A stretch of 32,000 nucleotides of DNA from Fibrobacter succinogenes subsp. succinogenes S85 (GCF_000146505.1 NC_017448.1:60001-92000), one strand, 5' to 3'; shown: positions 143 through 30,214, counted from the first letter of the stretch. Notes: generated by a model from the sequence alone, not told the origin. Program-made: numbers and translations.

Positions 143-2512
143 GTGAACTCTATACGCTTTTTTAAACTATATCTTTTGGCTGTCTTGGCTGTGTTCCTCG
201 TTGCCTGTTCCGATGACGATGATGGGGCCGAATTCATGTTTGATAGGGAAATTTCCGAAGTATCCGTTCTTTATGAATGCGATTCGGATACGGCAAGCGA
301 ACCTTGCTTTAAAATCAGGTACCGCTATCCGTATCGTCTTGACGATTATGCGGGTCTGTGCCTTTGGTTCGATACGACAATTGTTAACGACACTTCTAAG
401 GCGGTAAGCGATAAGCAGATTCGGCTTGCTCACGATACCACAAATGAGGAAACTTATTTCCACGAGTACAAGAAGTCGGGCCGTTATTACGACACAATTG
501 ATGTGTCTAAAATGGTTGCGCCGTATATCAAAGATGGTTATGATTCTCTTCAGGTTGCGATGTTTAGTGAATATACTGATGGTGGCGACCCTGGTGCCGT
601 GCAACGTGCAGTGCTTCGCTTTAAGGATAATGAGCCTCCTTCTGTCGTTGTGCCAGAAGACTCTGTTTGGTCTAAAGGTGTGATGCTTTCTTGGGATCGT
701 CCAATAGACCAGACCAATTTGCAGGGGGTCGGGAACGGCAAAATCTTAGGTTATAATATTGTCATTTATGCGATTGATCGTCCGGATGAGGATATTCGCG
801 ATTTGAAGGTTTCTTTGCAAACTCCGGCTGGCCTTGACTACACGGGGGGCAAGTACTATAAGCGCAGCGCTCAGATAGTCCGTAATACGGACTCCGTCTA
901 TATTCAAGAAATAAAGTCTAGCGATAAGGATAAAAACTATCTGCGCTTGGTCGTTCTGGATGGTGGGGCTTACGATAGCAAGAATCCTTCGAATAACCAC
1001 TTCCGCATGTTTATCGAAGGCCTCCGTACGCGTTCCAATACTGAAGATTACGAGTACAAGGTGGGATTCTCGTCTTGGGATATCGTCGGCAATCGTAGTG
1101 GCTCGCAGGGCGATACCAAGGTCAGTCCCAAAGACTGGCGTGGATTCATGACAACGGATTCCATTGCTCCTCTGATGTCTAGAAAAATTTTCACAGAAGA
1201 GGATTCGCTTTTCCCGGGCTATGCAAAGCTTGATAGCAACAACAGAGTCCGCATTTTCTGGAGCCGTAGTGTAGACCCGCTCCAGTTCAAACATGGAATT
1301 GAAGTTGATTCCGAATTGGTCATTCCGAGAGGCTGCAACATTCATGAATGTTACAGGGCTGTGACTAGTTATACCGTTGAGTATTATAATAAGCTGGACA
1401 AATCCTGGAACCTGTATCAAGATAACGAGAATATTGCTGGAACCCGCTATATTAAGGGTAAAGATGGTAGCTTCAGTGTCGATGCCTTAGATACGGCTAG
1501 TTTTGTGGGCTATACCATTCGCAGGGTTGCTCCTGGTGATACGCTGATTTTGCGCATCCTTTCTGTTGACAGTTCGGGCTATAAATCAAAGGTTTTGCAG
1601 GATTCAATTTTAGTTTCACCGGGGACTCTCGCGTCGGAACTCCAGTGTCCAGAAGGCTATGTCGCTGTTTCCACGTCTGATACGACTTCGTTCTGCATGG
1701 AACGGTTTGAGCATCGTGATGCAAAAGGCAATTTCATGACAAACGTTCTGCATTCTGAAGCTATGGCTGCTTGCGAGGCTGTCTCTGCGAGCGGTTTTGA
1801 AGTGTCGCTTTGTCGTGAACGCGATTGGGAGCTCGTATGCCTGTCGGGAGGGTCTTTGTCTTATGGTGTTATCGAAGAGGAAGATTCACAGGCTTCGGAC
1901 TACTTGTTCTCTGTATGCAATGTGAGTACAAACGATTCTGCAAGTGCCGCTAATATTGCAAAACGCGATCCGCACTGCATGAACCCGATGGGTGTTCATG
2001 ATTTGCCTGGCCAGTATCAGGAATGGGTGAGGGGGCGTTCCGATGATACCATCGCTATTTTGAAAGGCTCCAGCTATAAGGTGTTCCAGGGAATTGACCG
2101 CGAATCTATTGCCTATTGCACGAACCGCGCATTCCCGTTCTATACGCGTCCGGGGTACACGCAGGATACTGTTTACCTCTACCGCGAAGGAACTCAAGTG
2201 GATACGGTTTACGCTGCTGATACGACTAGAATTTTGCACAAAATATTGACGAAAAACGATTTCAAGGATACGCTTCAGTTCTATGACGTCGTTGATGCTA
2301 ATGGCAAGGTGATAGGCAAGGATTATTCGCTTTATTCTGAATACAAGAAGGGGGGCAACGCATGGCTTGATTCTATTGCTAACGGACTTAAGTATAAGCC
2401 CACTAGCAAGGAACCTGTATTCCTCACAGGTGAAATGATTTCTTATCGTCATGCATCATCGTTCTACAAGTCAACTGCTATTGGCTTCCGCTGCTGCGCG
2501 TACAAGAAATAA
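143..2512 (+). CDS. Large secreted lipoprotein with a C-terminal FGE/SUMF1-like (sulfatase-modifying-factor-like) domain
   Basis: GTG start. The N-terminus MNSIRFFKLYLLAVLAVFLVAC is a lipoprotein signal with lipobox LVAC followed by DDDD. The C-terminal part has FCMERFEH and ends ...AIGFRCCAYKK, resembling FGE-sulfatase domains (FCIDKYEV...GFRC). The 789-codon ORF has coherent codon usage. Confidence 0.7.
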   Translation: MNSIRFFKLYLLAVLAVFLVACSDDDDGAEFMFDREISEVSVLYECDSDTASEPCFKIRYRYPYRLDDYAGLCLWFDTTIVNDTSKAVSDKQIRLAHDTTNEETYFHEYKKSGRYYDTIDVSKMVAPYIKDGYDSLQVAMFSEYTDGGDPGAVQRAVLRFKDNEPPSVVVPEDSVWSKGVMLSWDRPIDQTNLQGVGNGKILGYNIVIYAIDRPDEDIRDLKVSLQTPAGLDYTGGKYYKRSAQIVRNTDSVYIQEIKSSDKDKNYLRLVVLDGGAYDSKNPSNNHFRMFIEGLRTRSNTEDYEYKVGFSSWDIVGNRSGSQGDTKVSPKDWRGFMTTDSIAPLMSRKIFTEEDSLFPGYAKLDSNNRVRIFWSRSVDPLQFKHGIEVDSELVIPRGCNIHECYRAVTSYTVEYYNKLDKSWNLYQDNENIAGTRYIKGKDGSFSVDALDTASFVGYTIRRVAPGDTLILRILSVDSSGYKSKVLQDSILVSPGTLASELQCPEGYVAVSTSDTTSFCMERFEHRDAKGNFMTNVLHSEAMAACEAVSASGFEVSLCRERDWELVCLSGGSLSYGVIEEEDSQASDYLFSVCNVSTNDSASAANIAKRDPHCMNPMGVHDLPGQYQEWVRGRSDDTIAILKGSSYKVFQGIDRESIAYCTNRAFPFYTRPGYTQDTVYLYREGTQVDTVYAADTTRILHKILTKNDFKDTLQFYDVVDANGKVIGKDYSLYSEYKKGGNAWLDSIANGLKYKPTSKEPVFLTGEMISYRHASSFYKSTAIGFRCCAYKK

Positions 2513-25794: not shown

Positions 25795-26448
25795 TTAGTT
25801 GACTTTTCTCATGACGCCGATGACGCGGCCTGCAATTGAGAAGTCTTTTCTGTTGTTCACGATGATCGGTTTGTACTTCGGGTTTGCCGGGCGGAGTTCC
25901 ACATGGTCTGCGCTCGGGTGATAGTACTTGACTGTAGCTTCGTTATCAATTTGGGCTACGACGATTTCACCAAGATCTGCGGTTTTTTGCTGACGAGCGA
26001 AAATCAAGTCTCCATCGAAAATGCCTGCGTTAATCATGGAATCTCCCTTGACACGGAGTGCAAACACATCGCTACGGCAGGCGAGGAAGTCTCTGTCGAT
26101 GGTGACGGTACCTTCGAGGTTCTGCACGGCAAGAATCGGCGTACCAGCGGCGACGCGGCCGACTATAGGAATTTCGATGGTGTTGCTTGCAACTTCCTTG
26201 CTTGATTCCTTGTCATCGCTCAAAATTTCGATACCGCGGCTGAGGCGCGGAGAACGGTTGATATAGCCTTTCTTGATGAGGGCTGCAAGGATAGAACGCA
26301 CACCGTTCGTAGAAGAAATGTCAAAGTGGTTGCCGATTTCGCGAACGGTTGGCGGCATGTGATTTTCTTTAGAATACTTCTTGATGTATTCATAAATCTC
26401 TTCTTGTCTTGCCGTCATTTCTTTGCGTTTTTCATTTGTATTTTCCAT
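25795..26448 (-). CDS. lexA: LexA repressor
   Basis: The winged-helix N-domain is [33 protein letters not shown]. The cleavage site is VAAG, with catalytic VKGDSM and a downstream Lys region. The start is taken at ATG 26448 (MENTNEK, 217 aa) behind GAGAGG. The ORF-track extension to 26514 would run through the promoter/operator. Confidence 0.92.
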
Positions 26449-26492: not shown

Positions 26493-26521
26493 AATATAAT
26501 GCACAACTGGGCAAATGTCAA
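26493..26521 (-). promoter_or_regulatory. lexA promoter TTGACA-N17-TATATT with a LexA-box-like palindrome TGCCCAGTTGTGCA (26500-26513) in the spacer
   Basis: The minus strand reads TTGACATTTGCCCAGTTGTGCATTATATT. The palindrome fits TGCNC-N4-GTGCA. Confidence 0.65.
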
Positions 26522-26613
26522 TATTTTCACTGCACAAAAGTAAAGTTTTTTGTAAAAAAATGATTTTGTTGAAAAAAAACAATCGTAATGTTCAAAAATA
26601 GGGCTTTTTTTGT

Positions 26614-26621
26614 TATATTTG
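26614..26621 (+). promoter_or_regulatory. Candidate -7 promoter element TATATTTG for tRNA-Pro
   Basis: Exact TAnnTTTG ending 8 nt before the mature tRNA 5' end. Confidence 0.4.
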
Positions 26622-26629
26622 GAGCACTT

Positions 26630-26703
26630 CGGGGTGTAGCTCAGCCTGGTAGAGCGTCTGCTTTGGGAGCAGAATGTCGTCAGTTCGAATCTGGCTACCC
26701 CGA
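26630..26703 (+). tRNA. tRNA-Pro (anticodon TGG)
   Basis: Hand-folded cloverleaf: acceptor CGGGGTG/TACCCCG, D arm GCTC/GAGC, anticodon arm TCTGC-TTTGGGA-GCAGA (TGG, with G37), T arm GTCAG-TTCGAAT-CTGGC, discriminator A. It is 74 nt and CCA is not encoded. Confidence 0.93.
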
Positions 26704-26745
26704 TACACAAAGAGCCGCCCCGCAGGGGTGGCTCTTTGTGTATTT
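26704..26745 (+). terminator. Strong hairpin/terminator immediately after tRNA-Pro
   Basis: 18-bp stem TACACAAAGAGCCGCCCC-GCA-GGGGTGGCTCTTTGTGTA (one G:T pair) followed by TTTGG. Confidence 0.7.
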
Positions 26746-26888
26746 GGTGGGGTGCCAGAGGAACTGACGAAGTCAGTTCGATTAAAACCGGCGAGAGCGT
26801 AGCGAACACAGCCGGTTTTAAGCCTTGACTTGAGCGTAGCTCAAGCAAGCCCGGAGGGCAAAACACGAAATGAAATGAGTGTTTTGGC

Positions 26889-27021
26889 AATCTGGCTACT
26901 CCGATGCTCAATCGGGAAGCCAGCGCAGCCAATCTGGCAACCCCGCGATGCGTAAGCATCGGCGTAGCCGAATAGGGGCGAGGACAATCTGGCTACCCCA
27001 AAGCATTATCTGGCTACCCCA
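26889..27021 (+). repeat. Four degenerate direct copies of the tRNA-Pro 3' end (AATCTGGCTACCCCGA)
   Basis: Copies are 26889-26904 AATCTGGCTACTCCGA, 26931-26948 AATCTGGCAACCCCGCGA, 26986-27000 AATCTGGCTACCCCA and 27008-27021 ATCTGGCTACCCCA. The tRNA segment itself is 26688-26703. Confidence 0.85.
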
Positions 27022-27044
27022 GCATCTTGCGCATTTCAGCAAAA

Positions 27045-27079
27045 AAAAATCTACGCAGCCAACAGCTACGTAGATTTTT
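27045..27079. terminator. Bidirectional terminator-like hairpin
   Basis: AAAAATCTACG-(13 nt)-CGTAGATTTTT, flanked by an A-run and a T-run. Confidence 0.6.
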
Positions 27080-27188: not shown

Positions 27189-27875
27189 TTACTTTCTCAA
27201 AAAATATTTATCCATCGGGAAAAAATCAATAAGAAACGACCCCTGATAAACAGTGTAAAATTCAGTTCCGATATCCATTGCTAAATAAGTGCGCTTGCTA
27301 ACCGTTATGCTTGATTTGCTACTGAATATAAGGTCGTAATGCATCCCTGATTTCGTTGTCCAGGTATCTTTATTAATAAGGATTTCTTTTTTGAGTATTG
27401 GCTTTTTTGTGAACCTTGCAGGAAGCTCGATAACTTCTGAAATTGAAACGCCAATGGCGAGTATTAGCAGAAGGATGAATTCAGTAATAAAATTTTTTGT
27501 AGATGGTTCTTTGTTGTCTTTTCTTGGAGGCAATACTTTAAAGATATGTAAAATAATGCCCAAACCAAAGCTTATAAAGAACGCTAATGAAATTCTAAGC
27601 AATGTTCTGTATAGCTCACGTTCGGCGAGTTTGTTCAAAAAAGTTTCGTCGATGATATAGCCGAGATCAAACGAATGTGTTTTTGCTCTTAGAAGGAAAA
27701 ATATTGCAGTGAAACATACTTCTAATACGAATAAAATAATTAGAATCTTATTTCTTGGTGAAAGTTTTTTAGTAGAAATTGTCACTTTGATTTTGGAGGG
27801 TGGGAGAGGTTGATTCTCCATCATTTGACTCTCCATCATCATGAGTTTTCTGCGTCTTTTGGCTGCTCTGGACAT
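27189..27875 (-). CDS. Hypothetical membrane protein (3 predicted TM helices), AT-rich gene
   Basis: ORF with a basic N-terminus MSRAAKRRRK, hydrophobic segments (ILIILFVLEVCFTAIFFLL, LAFFISFGLGIILHIF, FILLLILAIGVSI) and a C-terminal soluble part. I recognise no family. The start is chosen at ATG 27875, just past the upstream terminator; the ORF-track start 28013 overlaps the preceding gene. Confidence 0.55.
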   Translation of the reverse strand: MSRAAKRRRKLMMMESQMMENQPLPPSKIKVTISTKKLSPRNKILIILFVLEVCFTAIFFLLRAKTHSFDLGYIIDETFLNKLAERELYRTLLRISLAFFISFGLGIILHIFKVLPPRKDNKEPSTKNFITEFILLLILAIGVSISEVIELPARFTKKPILKKEILINKDTWTTKSGMHYDLIFSSKSSITVSKRTYLAMDIGTEFYTVYQGSFLIDFFPMDKYFLRK

Positions 27876-27885
27876 AATCCTAATA

Positions 27886-27911
27886 TAAAAAATCCCCGCG
27901 TTGCTGCGGGG
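27886..27911 (-). terminator. Intrinsic terminator of the CotH-like gene
   Basis: CCCCGC-AGCAAC-GCGGGG on the minus strand followed by ATTTTTT. Confidence 0.75.
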
Positions 27912-27934
27912 AAGGAGGATAGAACTTAAATATT

Positions 27935-30214
27935 TTATCTGAACTGCGCCGTGATGGTCGTACCCGCTGTCGGCGTAACCTTGTGCGGGTTTTCGGTCGA
28001 ACCGTCGGACCATCCCGTGAATACGGCACCTGCGCTAGCGACTGCCGTCAATTGCAATTCGTTGTTCGTAAAGAATTTGCATTGGTAGTTGTTGCTCGGG
28101 AGCTTCATGCCGTCAACCTGAACGGAGCCGTTTCCGCTTGCGCCGATGGTCACTGTGACTTCGTCTTCGAGGTCAAAGCGTTCAACCATTTCTTGCTTGA
28201 GCTTTTCACCGCGATTCTTGGCGAAAGCGATAAGCGTGTTGCCTGTCGGATCCCACTTGAAGTTGCTCTGGTTACGCGGCCAGCGCTGTTCGTCGCGCTG
28301 CTGTTCCGAAGATGGAATCGTTGCCATCATGGACTGCACTGTGCTCTGCACCTTTTCGTAGGCCAAGTAGCTGTTGAGGAGAATGCAAGCGTTGTTGATG
28401 AAGAGTCGCTTGAAGTCCGGATTCTCAAGGAGTTTTTTGAGCATTCCGCCCGGAGCCCTGCTGTCAACAGAAGTTCCGCCAAAACCGCCTCCAAAGCCGC
28501 CACCGAAGCCGCCCCACATGCCGCCATTGTTTCCGCCCTGATTGCTCGTCTGTTTTGCGCCAAGCACCCAGGTGAACATGTTTTCGTTTTCTTCGTCAAA
28601 GCCGCTGATGCCCGGCGTGAATCCAAAGCCGTGGTCGGTATCGAATGCGACAAACTTGAACGGATGACCGTTGCCGCCCCAGGCGCGCACGTTGTTGTTC
28701 GGCCAGTCGCCATTGTGGTAGTACATTTCGGCGAACATGTATTGCGCAAAGCTATTGACGTTGATTTTGCTCTTAATCTGTTCGTACTGTGCGTTATTTT
28801 CGCCTGCAAAATTGGCACTGGAAATGCTATTTACAAGTTGTTTGTAATCTTCCGTCGATGCGCCGTTTGTACCGCTAGCTTCGTAGCTGGAACCGGTGAT
28901 TTTAATCATGTTGATGGACTTGGAATCAATGCCGTAATTTGTTTCGACATAGCTCCTGTTCAGGCGTTCGCGCATATCGTGGATGCCGAAGTATTCACCG
29001 TTGTAGAACACGACGACCTGGCGGCTACGCTGGTAATCGACTTCTGTACCTTCCATGAGCGAGGTCATCATGGCATCGCCAACATAGTCCGTCCAGAAAC
29101 GGTTTCCGTTGTTGCGCAAGTTGAAGCTCTTGAATTTCTTGGCTTCGGGGCGCGTTTTGAACAAAGAATATTTGAGTGTCTTGTCGCCGTAATTGTCGTT
29201 ATCCATTTTGATGGCAACGCTCTTCTTGGGCTTGTAACGGCTGTAATTTCCGATGATAGAAATACCTGCGTCAATTTCCCAAGTCTTTTCTGTGGTGGAA
29301 CTTCCTTTTTCGAAGTATTCCACATGGACGGGGAGCTCTGTATCTTTCCAAAAATTCGCCTGCTTGCAAGGCTCGGTGCATTTCGGGTTGTTGTTGTCGG
29401 TAACGTTTGCGCCGCCGCCAAAGTCCCACATGCCGCCACCCATGCCACCGCCAGTGAGGTTTCCGGTAGCGTAGAGACCGTCGGTGGAGTCGAACATATC
29501 GTGGTGATTTACCGTGAGGGCTACCACCGGCATCGAGACGCTTTCGTTAATGAAATATGTTTGCGTTGTAGTATCGGCGGCCATGCCGTTTACAAATTCA
29601 GAACAACGTACAACCGAGTTCTCGGTGATTTGCTTTGCCACTGTGATTTGCTCGGAAGAGACCGTCGGGAAGGAACCGTCAAATGTGCAACGGATTTCGC
29701 CACCTTTTTGCGGTGTGAGCGGTTCAATCGTTAAACTTCTGTAGAAGCCCGCTTTCGGGAGGAATGTGGCTTTTGCCTTGTGATTGTCATCGTATTCAGC
29801 AAGCCCGCTAGACGAAGAAAAACTTGTCGAGATGGTGGAGCTCGAAATAGCGATAGCGCTCGATGAAAGTGCCGGAATTTGGGCGGGTGTTGAACTGCTT
29901 GCCGGTGCTACCGCAGAGCTCGAAAGCGGAGCGGGCGAGGAGGAACTTTCAGGAGCTTCTGCGCTCGTGTCGGCGCTTGAGTTTGTGTCCGCGCTAGAAT
30001 TCGCATTGGAATCCGCGCTGCCCGAAGCGGGCGCTTCTTGTTTTGCAGATGAAGAAGATTCTTCAGACTCGACAGATGAAGACGATTCTTCCGTAGAAGA
30101 CTCTTCTTCGCCGATTTCAGGCGCAATAGAATCAAATGCAGCCGAATTGTCGTCTGCACACCCATAAAAACATGTACCCGCAATAGCGAGTGACCAAACC
30201 AACAGTTTTTTCAT
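27935..30214 (-). CDS. CotH-family secreted lipoprotein with a chitobiase-C-like domain and a C-terminal InlB-B-repeat-like domain
   Basis: The start MKKLLVWSLAIAGTCFYGC is a lipoprotein signal, followed by a Ser-rich linker. GGEIRCTFDGSFPTVSS resembles chitobiase/hexosaminidase C-terminal domains. CotH-like blocks are FNLRNNGNRFWTDYVGDAM, VVFYNGEYFGIHDMRERL, FAEMYYHNGDWPNNNVRAW and FVAFDTDHGFG. The C-terminal AGAVFTGWSDGS is typical of InlB B-repeat modules. Confidence 0.7.
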   Translation of the reverse strand: MKKLLVWSLAIAGTCFYGCADDNSAAFDSIAPEIGEEESSTEESSSSVESEESSSSAKQEAPASGSADSNANSSADTNSSADTSAEAPESSSSPAPLSSSAVAPASSSTPAQIPALSSSAIAISSSTISTSFSSSSGLAEYDDNHKAKATFLPKAGFYRSLTIEPLTPQKGGEIRCTFDGSFPTVSSEQITVAKQITENSVVRCSEFVNGMAADTTTQTYFINESVSMPVVALTVNHHDMFDSTDGLYATGNLTGGGMGGGMWDFGGGANVTDNNNPKCTEPCKQANFWKDTELPVHVEYFEKGSSTTEKTWEIDAGISIIGNYSRYKPKKSVAIKMDNDNYGDKTLKYSLFKTRPEAKKFKSFNLRNNGNRFWTDYVGDAMMTSLMEGTEVDYQRSRQVVVFYNGEYFGIHDMRERLNRSYVETNYGIDSKSINMIKITGSSYEASGTNGASTEDYKQLVNSISSANFAGENNAQYEQIKSKINVNSFAQYMFAEMYYHNGDWPNNNVRAWGGNGHPFKFVAFDTDHGFGFTPGISGFDEENENMFTWVLGAKQTSNQGGNNGGMWGGFGGGFGGGFGGTSVDSRAPGGMLKKLLENPDFKRLFINNACILLNSYLAYEKVQSTVQSMMATIPSSEQQRDEQRWPRNQSNFKWDPTGNTLIAFAKNRGEKLKQEMVERFDLEDEVTVTIGASGNGSVQVDGMKLPSNNYQCKFFTNNELQLTAVASAGAVFTGWSDGSTENPHKVTPTAGTTITAQFR

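Follow-up and report, generated by a model that had tools for sequence, protein, structure and literature searches.

Direct repeats of part of a tRNA gene are familiar as the attL and attR ends of integrase islands, and CIME-like remnants carry such repeats without an integrase. Small gene-less hairpin repeats are likewise well described, among them REP/BIME and the miniature elements derived from IS200/IS605. A further system, the tRNA-linked repeats (TLRs) of Escherichia coli, combines copies of a tRNA tail with a position directly behind the tRNA gene. [quoted passage not shown] They are transcribed by read-through and then processed (PMC8144298). Their history, including the 178-bp repeats of tyrT and the rtT RNA (Egan and Landy, 1978; Bosl and Kersten, 1991; Rudd, 1999), was summarised by Stenum and others, according to whom no TLR function is known after more than 40 years and an early link to the stringent response has been withdrawn (PMC8144298).

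The locus described here lies in a 32,000-nt stretch of the chromosome of Fibrobacter succinogenes subsp. succinogenes S85, hereafter the window. A preliminary description of this DNA had noticed degenerate copies of the 3′ end of tRNA-Pro stacked behind the gene, and had read them as scars of integrated islands that lost their cargo, as tandem decoy or secondary att sites, or as tRNA mimics within a non-coding RNA. Judged from sequence comparison, the copies are very probably the ends of small, gene-less, hairpin-rich units, and the array a set of divergent Fibrobacter TLRs. The structural definition of TLRs (PMC8144298) applies to the Fibrobacter array at every point.

The array behind tRNA-Pro(TGG)

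The tRNA-Pro(TGG) gene occupies positions 26630–26703 of the plus strand (Rfam tRNA, 63.7 bits; ARAGORN gives 26629–26704), does not encode its CCA, and is preceded by a promoter-like site at 26591–26619 in the promoter scan. Divergently upstream lies lexA (25795–26448, minus strand), which has a strong promoter-like site at 26521–26493. The last 16 nt of the tRNA gene, AATCTGGCTACCCCGA (26688–26703), recur on the same strand at 26889, 26931, 26986 and 27007 with one, two, one and three mismatches (15/16, 14/16, 15/16 and 13/16 identical nucleotides), all within 320 nt. These five matches compare with 0.22 expected, a count of five being reached in none of 100 shuffles, and the recurrence reported earlier is thus real. 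Its details hold as well: a T directly follows the copy at 26889, a C precedes the copies at 26889, 26931 and 26986 where the tRNA has a G, and the G before the final A is missing in the last two copies (26986 and 27007). The sole other match to the 13-mer core in the 3.84-Mb genome, a sixth at C1:269505, was discarded as chance, lying in a coding region with no tRNA nearby.

Directly behind the tRNA gene stands its intrinsic terminator (26704–26745, plus strand), found by sequence, folding and terminator scan; its hairpin, TACACAAAGAGCCGCCCC-GCA-GGGGTGGCTCTTTGTGTA at 26704–26742, is followed by TTT, and an analogous hairpin stands before every complete unit in related species. The complete unit, designated type A, extends from 26746 to 26904 on the plus strand and begins 43 nt past tRNA-Pro; it forms a fold-back of about 160 nt, supported by covariation and by a score of 188.3 bits with the covariance model R1 introduced below. 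The promoter scan detected no promoter-like site ahead of it. Three decayed units follow on the same strand. The first is a 5′-truncated 42-nt module (26905–26946) ending in tail copy 3 (26931–26946), and it corresponds to the 3′ end of “type B” units, which are complete in loci L015 and L017. The second, also 5′-truncated, is a 55-nt module (26947–27001) ending in tail copy 4 (26986–27001) and corresponding to the 3′ end of “type C” units, complete in L023–L025 and again in L017. The third is a 21-nt remnant (27002–27022) that ends in tail copy 5 (27007–27022) and joins the conserved right flank. The array is closed by a bidirectional terminator hairpin at 27045–27079, conserved in relatives of the S85 group, which also serves a convergent gene (27189–28013, minus strand), so that the terminator scan brackets the array between two terminators. 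A search for contigs encoding the product of that convergent gene found none.

Within the complete unit, the elements follow in a fixed order: a 5′ arm, a hairpin made from the T-stem, GTTCGA as the first half of the T-loop, a cassette of GNA-triloop hairpins and, at the end, the tRNA tail. The 5′ arm, GGGGTGCCAGA (26749–26759), is complementary in sequence to the tail copy that ends the unit. Hairpin A (AACTGAC-GAA-GTCAGTT, 26762–26778) is made from the T-stem, and its end plus CGA forms a copy of the T-arm, GTCAGTTCGA (26772–26781), comprising the 5′ strand of the T-stem and the first five bases of the T-loop. The cassette consists of hairpin B with loop GAGAGCGTAGCGAACACA (26782–26821), hairpin C (26824–26849), the segment CCCGGAGGG (26850–26858) and hairpin D with loop GAAATGAAATGA (26859–26886), all on the plus strand. 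The 3′ arm is tail copy 2 (26889–26904), and the unit ends in ATCTGGCTACTCCGA. When GTCAGTTCGA and ATCTGGCTAC(T/C)CCGA are joined, the last 25 nt of the tRNA are rebuilt. The unit is therefore a copy of the 3′ part of the tRNA in which a hairpin cassette splits the T-loop after A58 (58/59), and in front of which its own inverted complement stands.

With an inverted copy of the tail at its 5′ side, the unit closes in a helix of 11–12 bp and one bulge, a mimic of the acceptor and T-stems combined. The duplex of the two arms of the window unit has an energy of −18.6 kcal/mol, compared with −11.6 kcal/mol when arms of other tRNA types are used, and the T-G wobble of the tRNA T-stem is replaced by a C-G pair in the 5′ arm. 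Among the readings offered earlier, a mimic of the tRNA 3′ end inside a non-coding RNA comes closest to this structure; the mimicry is borne out by the pairing of the 5′ arm with the tail copy, and the RNA itself is taken up in the last section.

A unit family linked to tRNA genes

The covariance model R1 was built from six complete units. A MAFFT alignment (A1) analysed with RNAalifold had preferred the tRNA-like T-stem pairing and missed several stems through misalignment, and it was replaced by a hand-set structure and realignment with Infernal. BLAST against relatives revealed a modular region, pieces of which also occur behind tRNA-Pro(CGG) and tRNA-Ser(CGA). In S85 the tail copies outside tRNA genes sit behind Pro-TGG, Pro-CGG, Ser-CGA and Gly-GCC, and R1 gave five matches, all directly behind tRNA genes (Pro-TGG, Ser-CGA, Pro-CGG, and Gly-GCC twice), with none away from a tRNA gene anywhere in the S85 genome. 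The sister units, located at 717919–718110, 2837156–2837307, 3053105–3053271 and 3053778–3053944 of the S85 chromosome (G000:C1), lie behind tRNA-Pro(CGG), tRNA-Ser(CGA) and the tRNA-Gly(GCC) array. R1 matches were obtained in all 41 Fibrobacter genomes searched and in 15 of 24 other genomes of the family, with 1–11 units per genome, and in none of 56 genomes from other families of the class.

The 3′ arm of each R1 unit is a copy of the tail of its upstream tRNA, and all units are co-oriented with their tRNA, an orientation on which the idea of DNA inversion between the inverted arms was dropped. The arms are matched to each tRNA: duplexes of a unit’s own arms average −13.3 kcal/mol, against −8.2 kcal/mol for arms swapped between tRNA types. 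Here the closing helix was judged by duplex energies, as the bulges differ between units and no single register applies. Relatives carry one to five repeats per locus, the window having one complete and three partial ones. In a tree of the cassette cores, units from one tRNA locus mostly group together and at least two label changes are forced, which points to a descent that was mainly vertical with occasional exchange.

When 45 units were realigned to R1, 94.4% of the cells at paired positions were paired, compared with 67.5% in shuffled controls and 22%–44% after sliding the partners, and compensatory changes on both sides were present in 35 of 41 pairs, although these figures overstate the case, the alignment having been fitted to the model and the sequences being related. 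The stems of hairpins B, C and D differ widely in sequence between units while their loops are constant. It had been suggested earlier that a block strictly conserved in all relatives with compensatory changes would indicate a functional RNA rather than scars; compensatory changes were found, and modules vary between strains.

The comparison with E. coli reveals a shared architecture. In both systems one to five units stand at a locus, immediately downstream of a tRNA gene, and end in the tRNA tail from the middle of the T-loop to the end, which amounts to 18–19 nt with encoded CCA in E. coli and 15–16 nt without CCA here. Both also follow the order 5′ arm, GAGAAC, T-stem hairpin, GTTCGAyT, GAGCGWAGCGA, hairpin, CCCGAAGGG, GCGAAGCGA and tRNA tail. 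In the tyrT-tyrV spacer of E. coli and the three repeats after tyrV (NC_000913; rttR repeats), this order is realised as 5′ arm GGGGAAGGAT, GAGAAC, T-stem hairpin, GTTCGAyT, GAGCGAAAGCGA, hairpin, CCCGAAGGG, GAGCGAAGCGA and the tail of tRNA-Tyr. The rrn TLRs of E. coli share with the Fibrobacter array a position between two terminators. There are differences too. The organisms belong to different phyla, and the E. coli units measure about 130 nt compared with 150–170 nt in Fibrobacter, where the B and D motifs tip long covarying stems that the E. coli units lack. Each complete Fibrobacter unit has its own intrinsic terminator before it, whereas the tyrT units of E. coli are co-transcribed without one.

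In a 2.2-kb search with filters off, R1 matched exactly the four E. coli units (E-values 3e-5 to 8e-4). Against the whole E. coli chromosome with strict filters it recovered no RtT unit, and on this ground the sequence similarity is weak at genome scale. Conversely, the Rfam family RtT (RF00391), which scores the E. coli units at 133–137 bits, aligned over its full length (1–130) to the sibling Fibrobacter tRNA-Ser unit as the top family by far, with 30.6 bits and an E-value of 1.8e-4, although this score lies below the 45-bit gathering score. RF00391 did not match the window’s own unit at E ≤ 10, and Rfam applied to the region gave only the tRNA and noise. As far as these sequences tell, the relation to the E. 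coli TLRs is real in architecture and reciprocal in search, but weak.

Scanning one genome of each species for the motif order TGAGAAS…GTTCGA…CCCGAAGGG yielded 103 matches, distributed over 80 loci. Since about 46 chance matches were estimated for the bare pattern, only matches with tRNA context count: 73 have a same-strand tRNA at most 900 nt upstream, and 59 end in that tRNA’s last 13 nt. The matches include genomes of Kangiella, Alcanivorax, Pseudomonadales, Chromatiales and deltaproteobacteria; those in Actinomycetota and Archaea are without tRNA context. TLRs thus appear, by their motifs, to be far more widespread than the published enterobacterial range. In non-enteric Proteobacteria, the motif order together with the upstream tRNA’s tail was observed behind Arg, Ser, Lys, Gln, Glu, Val, Phe and Tyr tRNAs, often in tandem (L085–L164).

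Strain variation and the search for islands

Close relatives of S85 were taken to be contigs encoding an identical LexA, and three states of the array were found among them: that of S85, one without the 55-nt module (L058), and one without the 42-nt module (L063–L065). In each case the missing module runs exactly from copy to copy. The next species (G018, L008) has a unit core 98%–100% identical to that of S85 while the terminator and the 5′ arm (window 26704–26760) differ, and the distal end of its array carries another insert. By this comparison the array is a mosaic in sequence. Given the copy-to-copy loss of modules and the mosaic differences between S85 and G018, the tail copies therefore act as recombination junctions. 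The module-sized differences between strains show that the stack grows and shrinks by recombination or slippage between the direct repeats of 13–16 nt that end each unit. Such repeats, placed 21–55 nt apart, could slip or exchange unequally without a dedicated enzyme, so that no integrase need be assumed.

This result touches the interpretation put forward at first, in which the copies are stacked attL/attR scars of tyrosine-recombinase islands that integrated at tRNA-Pro and lost nearly all their cargo. Part of that interpretation stands, namely that the copies mark recombination junctions, with one module missing in each relative. An alignment of strains had been proposed as the way to find filled sites between the copies, and the 42-nt and 55-nt modules are indeed present or absent there, but they are non-coding and not islands. 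A reading as scars agrees further with the direct repeats of the tRNA 3′ end and with the fresh tail and terminator that each complete module brings, as islands do. A likeness to attL/attR repeats and to CIME-like integrase-less remnants is accordingly plain in the direct repeats, the restored tail plus terminator and the tandem accretion. One species even has a gene inside such an array: in L077 the 5′ half of one unit of a tRNA-Pro array has given way to a 207-aa open reading frame (680–1303, plus strand) that bears a signal of the lipoprotein type (…FTVYLSSC). Neither a recombinase nearby nor flanking repeats were seen for this small gene.

The likeness ends with the interior of the units, where an inverted 5′ arm, a split T-loop and a conserved cassette are found, none of which is a feature of att sites. 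The segments between copies form a conserved, structured and covarying family and not random remnants, and the same cassette occurs at four tRNAs with four different cores. Because the units stand behind four tRNAs with arms matched to each, one integrase with one att core cannot explain them. The search for recombinases was equally unproductive. As had been stated, the window contains no integrase; the neighbours of the array are lexA, lepA, a hypothetical gene and a gene with a CotH domain. None was found beside any inspected array either, and S85 has only three PF00589 recombinases, short proteins of about 283–303 aa, all of them distant.

Mobile elements carrying the core were also sought. 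In IMG/VR, a 21-mer of the core occurs in 13 contigs, in 12 of them inside a called tRNA-Pro(TGG) gene and mostly within phage tRNA arrays; in the remaining contig (L051) it lies in a tRNA array in which no tRNA-Pro was called. The core had no match in a phage collection, and R1 had none in viral contigs below an E-value of 0.05. The suggestion that some phage or conjugative element might carry the att core was thus not borne out in these viral and phage sequences, the viral contigs having it in tRNA arrays and not as a partial attP copy. A 15.5-kb candidate “filled site” in G010 proved to hold prfC, rpiA and other housekeeping genes and is no island; the distal copy there falls within open reading frames without assigned identity and was taken as a chance match in coding sequence, like that of S85. 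With no recombinase found near the array, no cargo, and no attP in the viral and phage sequences searched, island scars with lost cargo are a very improbable explanation of the array, and the identification as TLR units is preferred.

The same variability bears on another proposal, in which the units are duplicates of the tRNA 3′ region without a function, made and removed by unequal crossing-over, which persist only because they are harmless. Three of the four window units are truncated, variable between strains and not individually constrained, and four decades of work have assigned TLRs no function (PMC8144298). Set against this are the compensatory changes that preserve four hairpins across the 45 units, the loop motifs conserved between Fibrobacter and E. 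coli, and the presence of units in 41/41 genomes of the genus, which make a neutral by-product quite unlikely. The strong covariation of the stems, together with loops conserved across phyla, indicates instead that the units are under constraint or spreading actively.

Read-through RNA or folded DNA

Taken as a whole, the locus is probably best explained as a Fibrobacter TLR array of the RtT class, together with an account of its RNA that follows E. coli. By this analogy, some tRNA-Pro transcripts would continue past the first terminator. Guided by the tRNA-like helix and by the repeated tail, the enzymes of tRNA end processing would then cut out a stable structured RNA some 160 nt long, whose putative binding surface would be the conserved purine-rich loops GAGCGWAGCGA, CCCGNAGGG and GAAAYGAARTGA. 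Read-through transcription followed by tRNA-type processing is, by this analogy, the best-supported account of how the units would work. The strong intrinsic terminator between tRNA-Pro and the complete unit speaks against an RNA of this kind, as does the lack of a promoter-like site ahead of the unit.

The character of the stems speaks against it too. Pairing is almost purely Watson-Crick: of 1484 cells only 23 are G-T or T-G and 13 are A-C or C-A, with little strand asymmetry and, once one column is set aside, no excess of G-T over A-C. The loops are mostly C-GNA-G triloops (GAA, GTA, GGA, GCA). Triloops of the GNA type with a closing C-G pair are known above all from very stable DNA mini-hairpins, and G-U pairs are usually more frequent in structured RNAs. 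The Watson-Crick stems, the C-GNA-G triloops and the corrected wobble are explained no less well by a DNA-level or templated origin than by an RNA, and they keep a DNA-level reading in play. This signature counts against the RNA mechanism, whose main rival is a DNA-level element. The cassette would then be a small non-autonomous hairpin element, mobile or recombinogenic, which acts in the form of folded single-stranded DNA and has the T-loop DNA of tRNA genes as its target, at GTTCGA^ATC; its fold-back arms would rebuild the target duplex, and any RNA would be incidental.

An element of this type would find further agreement in the arms, which are perfect inverted copies apart from the corrected tRNA wobble pair, and in the insertion point, which the Pro-TGG, Pro-CGG, Ser and Gly units share with one another and with E. 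coli Tyr. Strains differ by the presence or absence of entire modules, and cassettes of related subtypes were found at different tRNA loci, at least two label changes being forced by the tree. In addition, tRNA-Pro genes interrupted at exactly this point were found. Of 101 Fibrobacter genomes, 10 have a tRNA-Pro(TGG) whose body passes from GTTCGA directly into a cassette. Seven such loci were inspected. In three of them (L077, L081 and L082) the tRNA-Pro gene is complete and has its usual promoter, its T-loop is interrupted by a cassette of about 108 nt, and an intact tRNA-Pro gene follows just downstream; the interrupted gene of L077 (G098:C37) lies at about 1500–1900 on the minus strand. In L080 the 5′ half is decayed, and in L079, L083 and L084 it is truncated. 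Removal of the insert in silico restores a callable tRNA-Pro. The interrupted genes can be read as insertions into the T-loop, as the outcome of a tRNA-terminator-unit arrangement that lost the DNA between its two GTCAGTTCGA repeats, or as genes for a tRNA-scaffolded RNA.

Two further features of these loci were observed. A second insert of about 75 nt is present in the anticodon-loop region of an interrupted tRNA-Pro pseudogene upstream of the remnant in L079 and L083. Right after the tail of the interrupted gene, in L077, L079 and L081–L084, a conserved hairpin GGTCC-GTNA-GGACC overlaps the discriminator position; its third loop base varies (A, C, T or G) and its stem is constant.

Several observations weigh against the DNA element. 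S85, whose genome is 99.99% complete, has no Y1/HUH transposase (PF01797) and no RAYT; besides the three short tyrosine recombinases it has one reverse transcriptase, a single RVT_1 match in an 838-aa frame at C1:2050503–2050922, and none of these is adjacent to an array. No copy lies away from a tRNA gene, the mostly locus-wise clustering of cassettes agrees with vertical descent, and the interrupted tRNA genes could also have arisen by deletion between the two GTCAGTTCGA repeats. The units resemble REP/BIME and IS200/IS605-derived hairpin elements in being small and gene-less, with Watson-Crick stems and conserved loops; they differ in being confined to positions behind tRNA genes rather than dispersed, and in having arms that copy the host tRNA. 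Other origins were considered and dropped, namely retron msDNA or reverse transcription of the mature tRNA, given that the copies are without CCA, and integron attC sites, as no R″/R′ cores were seen by eye. A mobile or recombinogenic DNA element is therefore judged unlikely, though it deserves to be kept beside the favoured read-through RNA.

Going beyond the genus, it may tentatively be proposed that the TLR cassettes are one ancient, cross-phylum family of inserts at the sole permissive point of the T-loop (58/59), using the top half of the tRNA as a scaffold. They would be either a conserved structured RNA whose GNA-hairpin loops are bound by a partner, or a mobile DNA that has no known transposase and retailors its arms to each host tRNA. 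If this were true, the cassettes within complete, promoter-driven tRNA-Pro genes of some Fibrobacter would be natural “tRNA-scaffolded” RNAs.

For the annotation of bacterial genomes, the locus carries a warning that stacked partial-tRNA repeats need not be integration scars. Knowledge of TLRs in E. coli goes back to 1978, and both the published work and Rfam treat them as enterobacterial; their architecture is universal in Fibrobacter, as judged by the 41/41 genomes searched. With its complete unit, strain variants that lack single modules and sister species with the cassette in a whole tRNA gene, S85 offers a testable TLR system outside E. coli, and one in which the units would be under constraint or actively spreading, and not a local accident of the tyrT operon.
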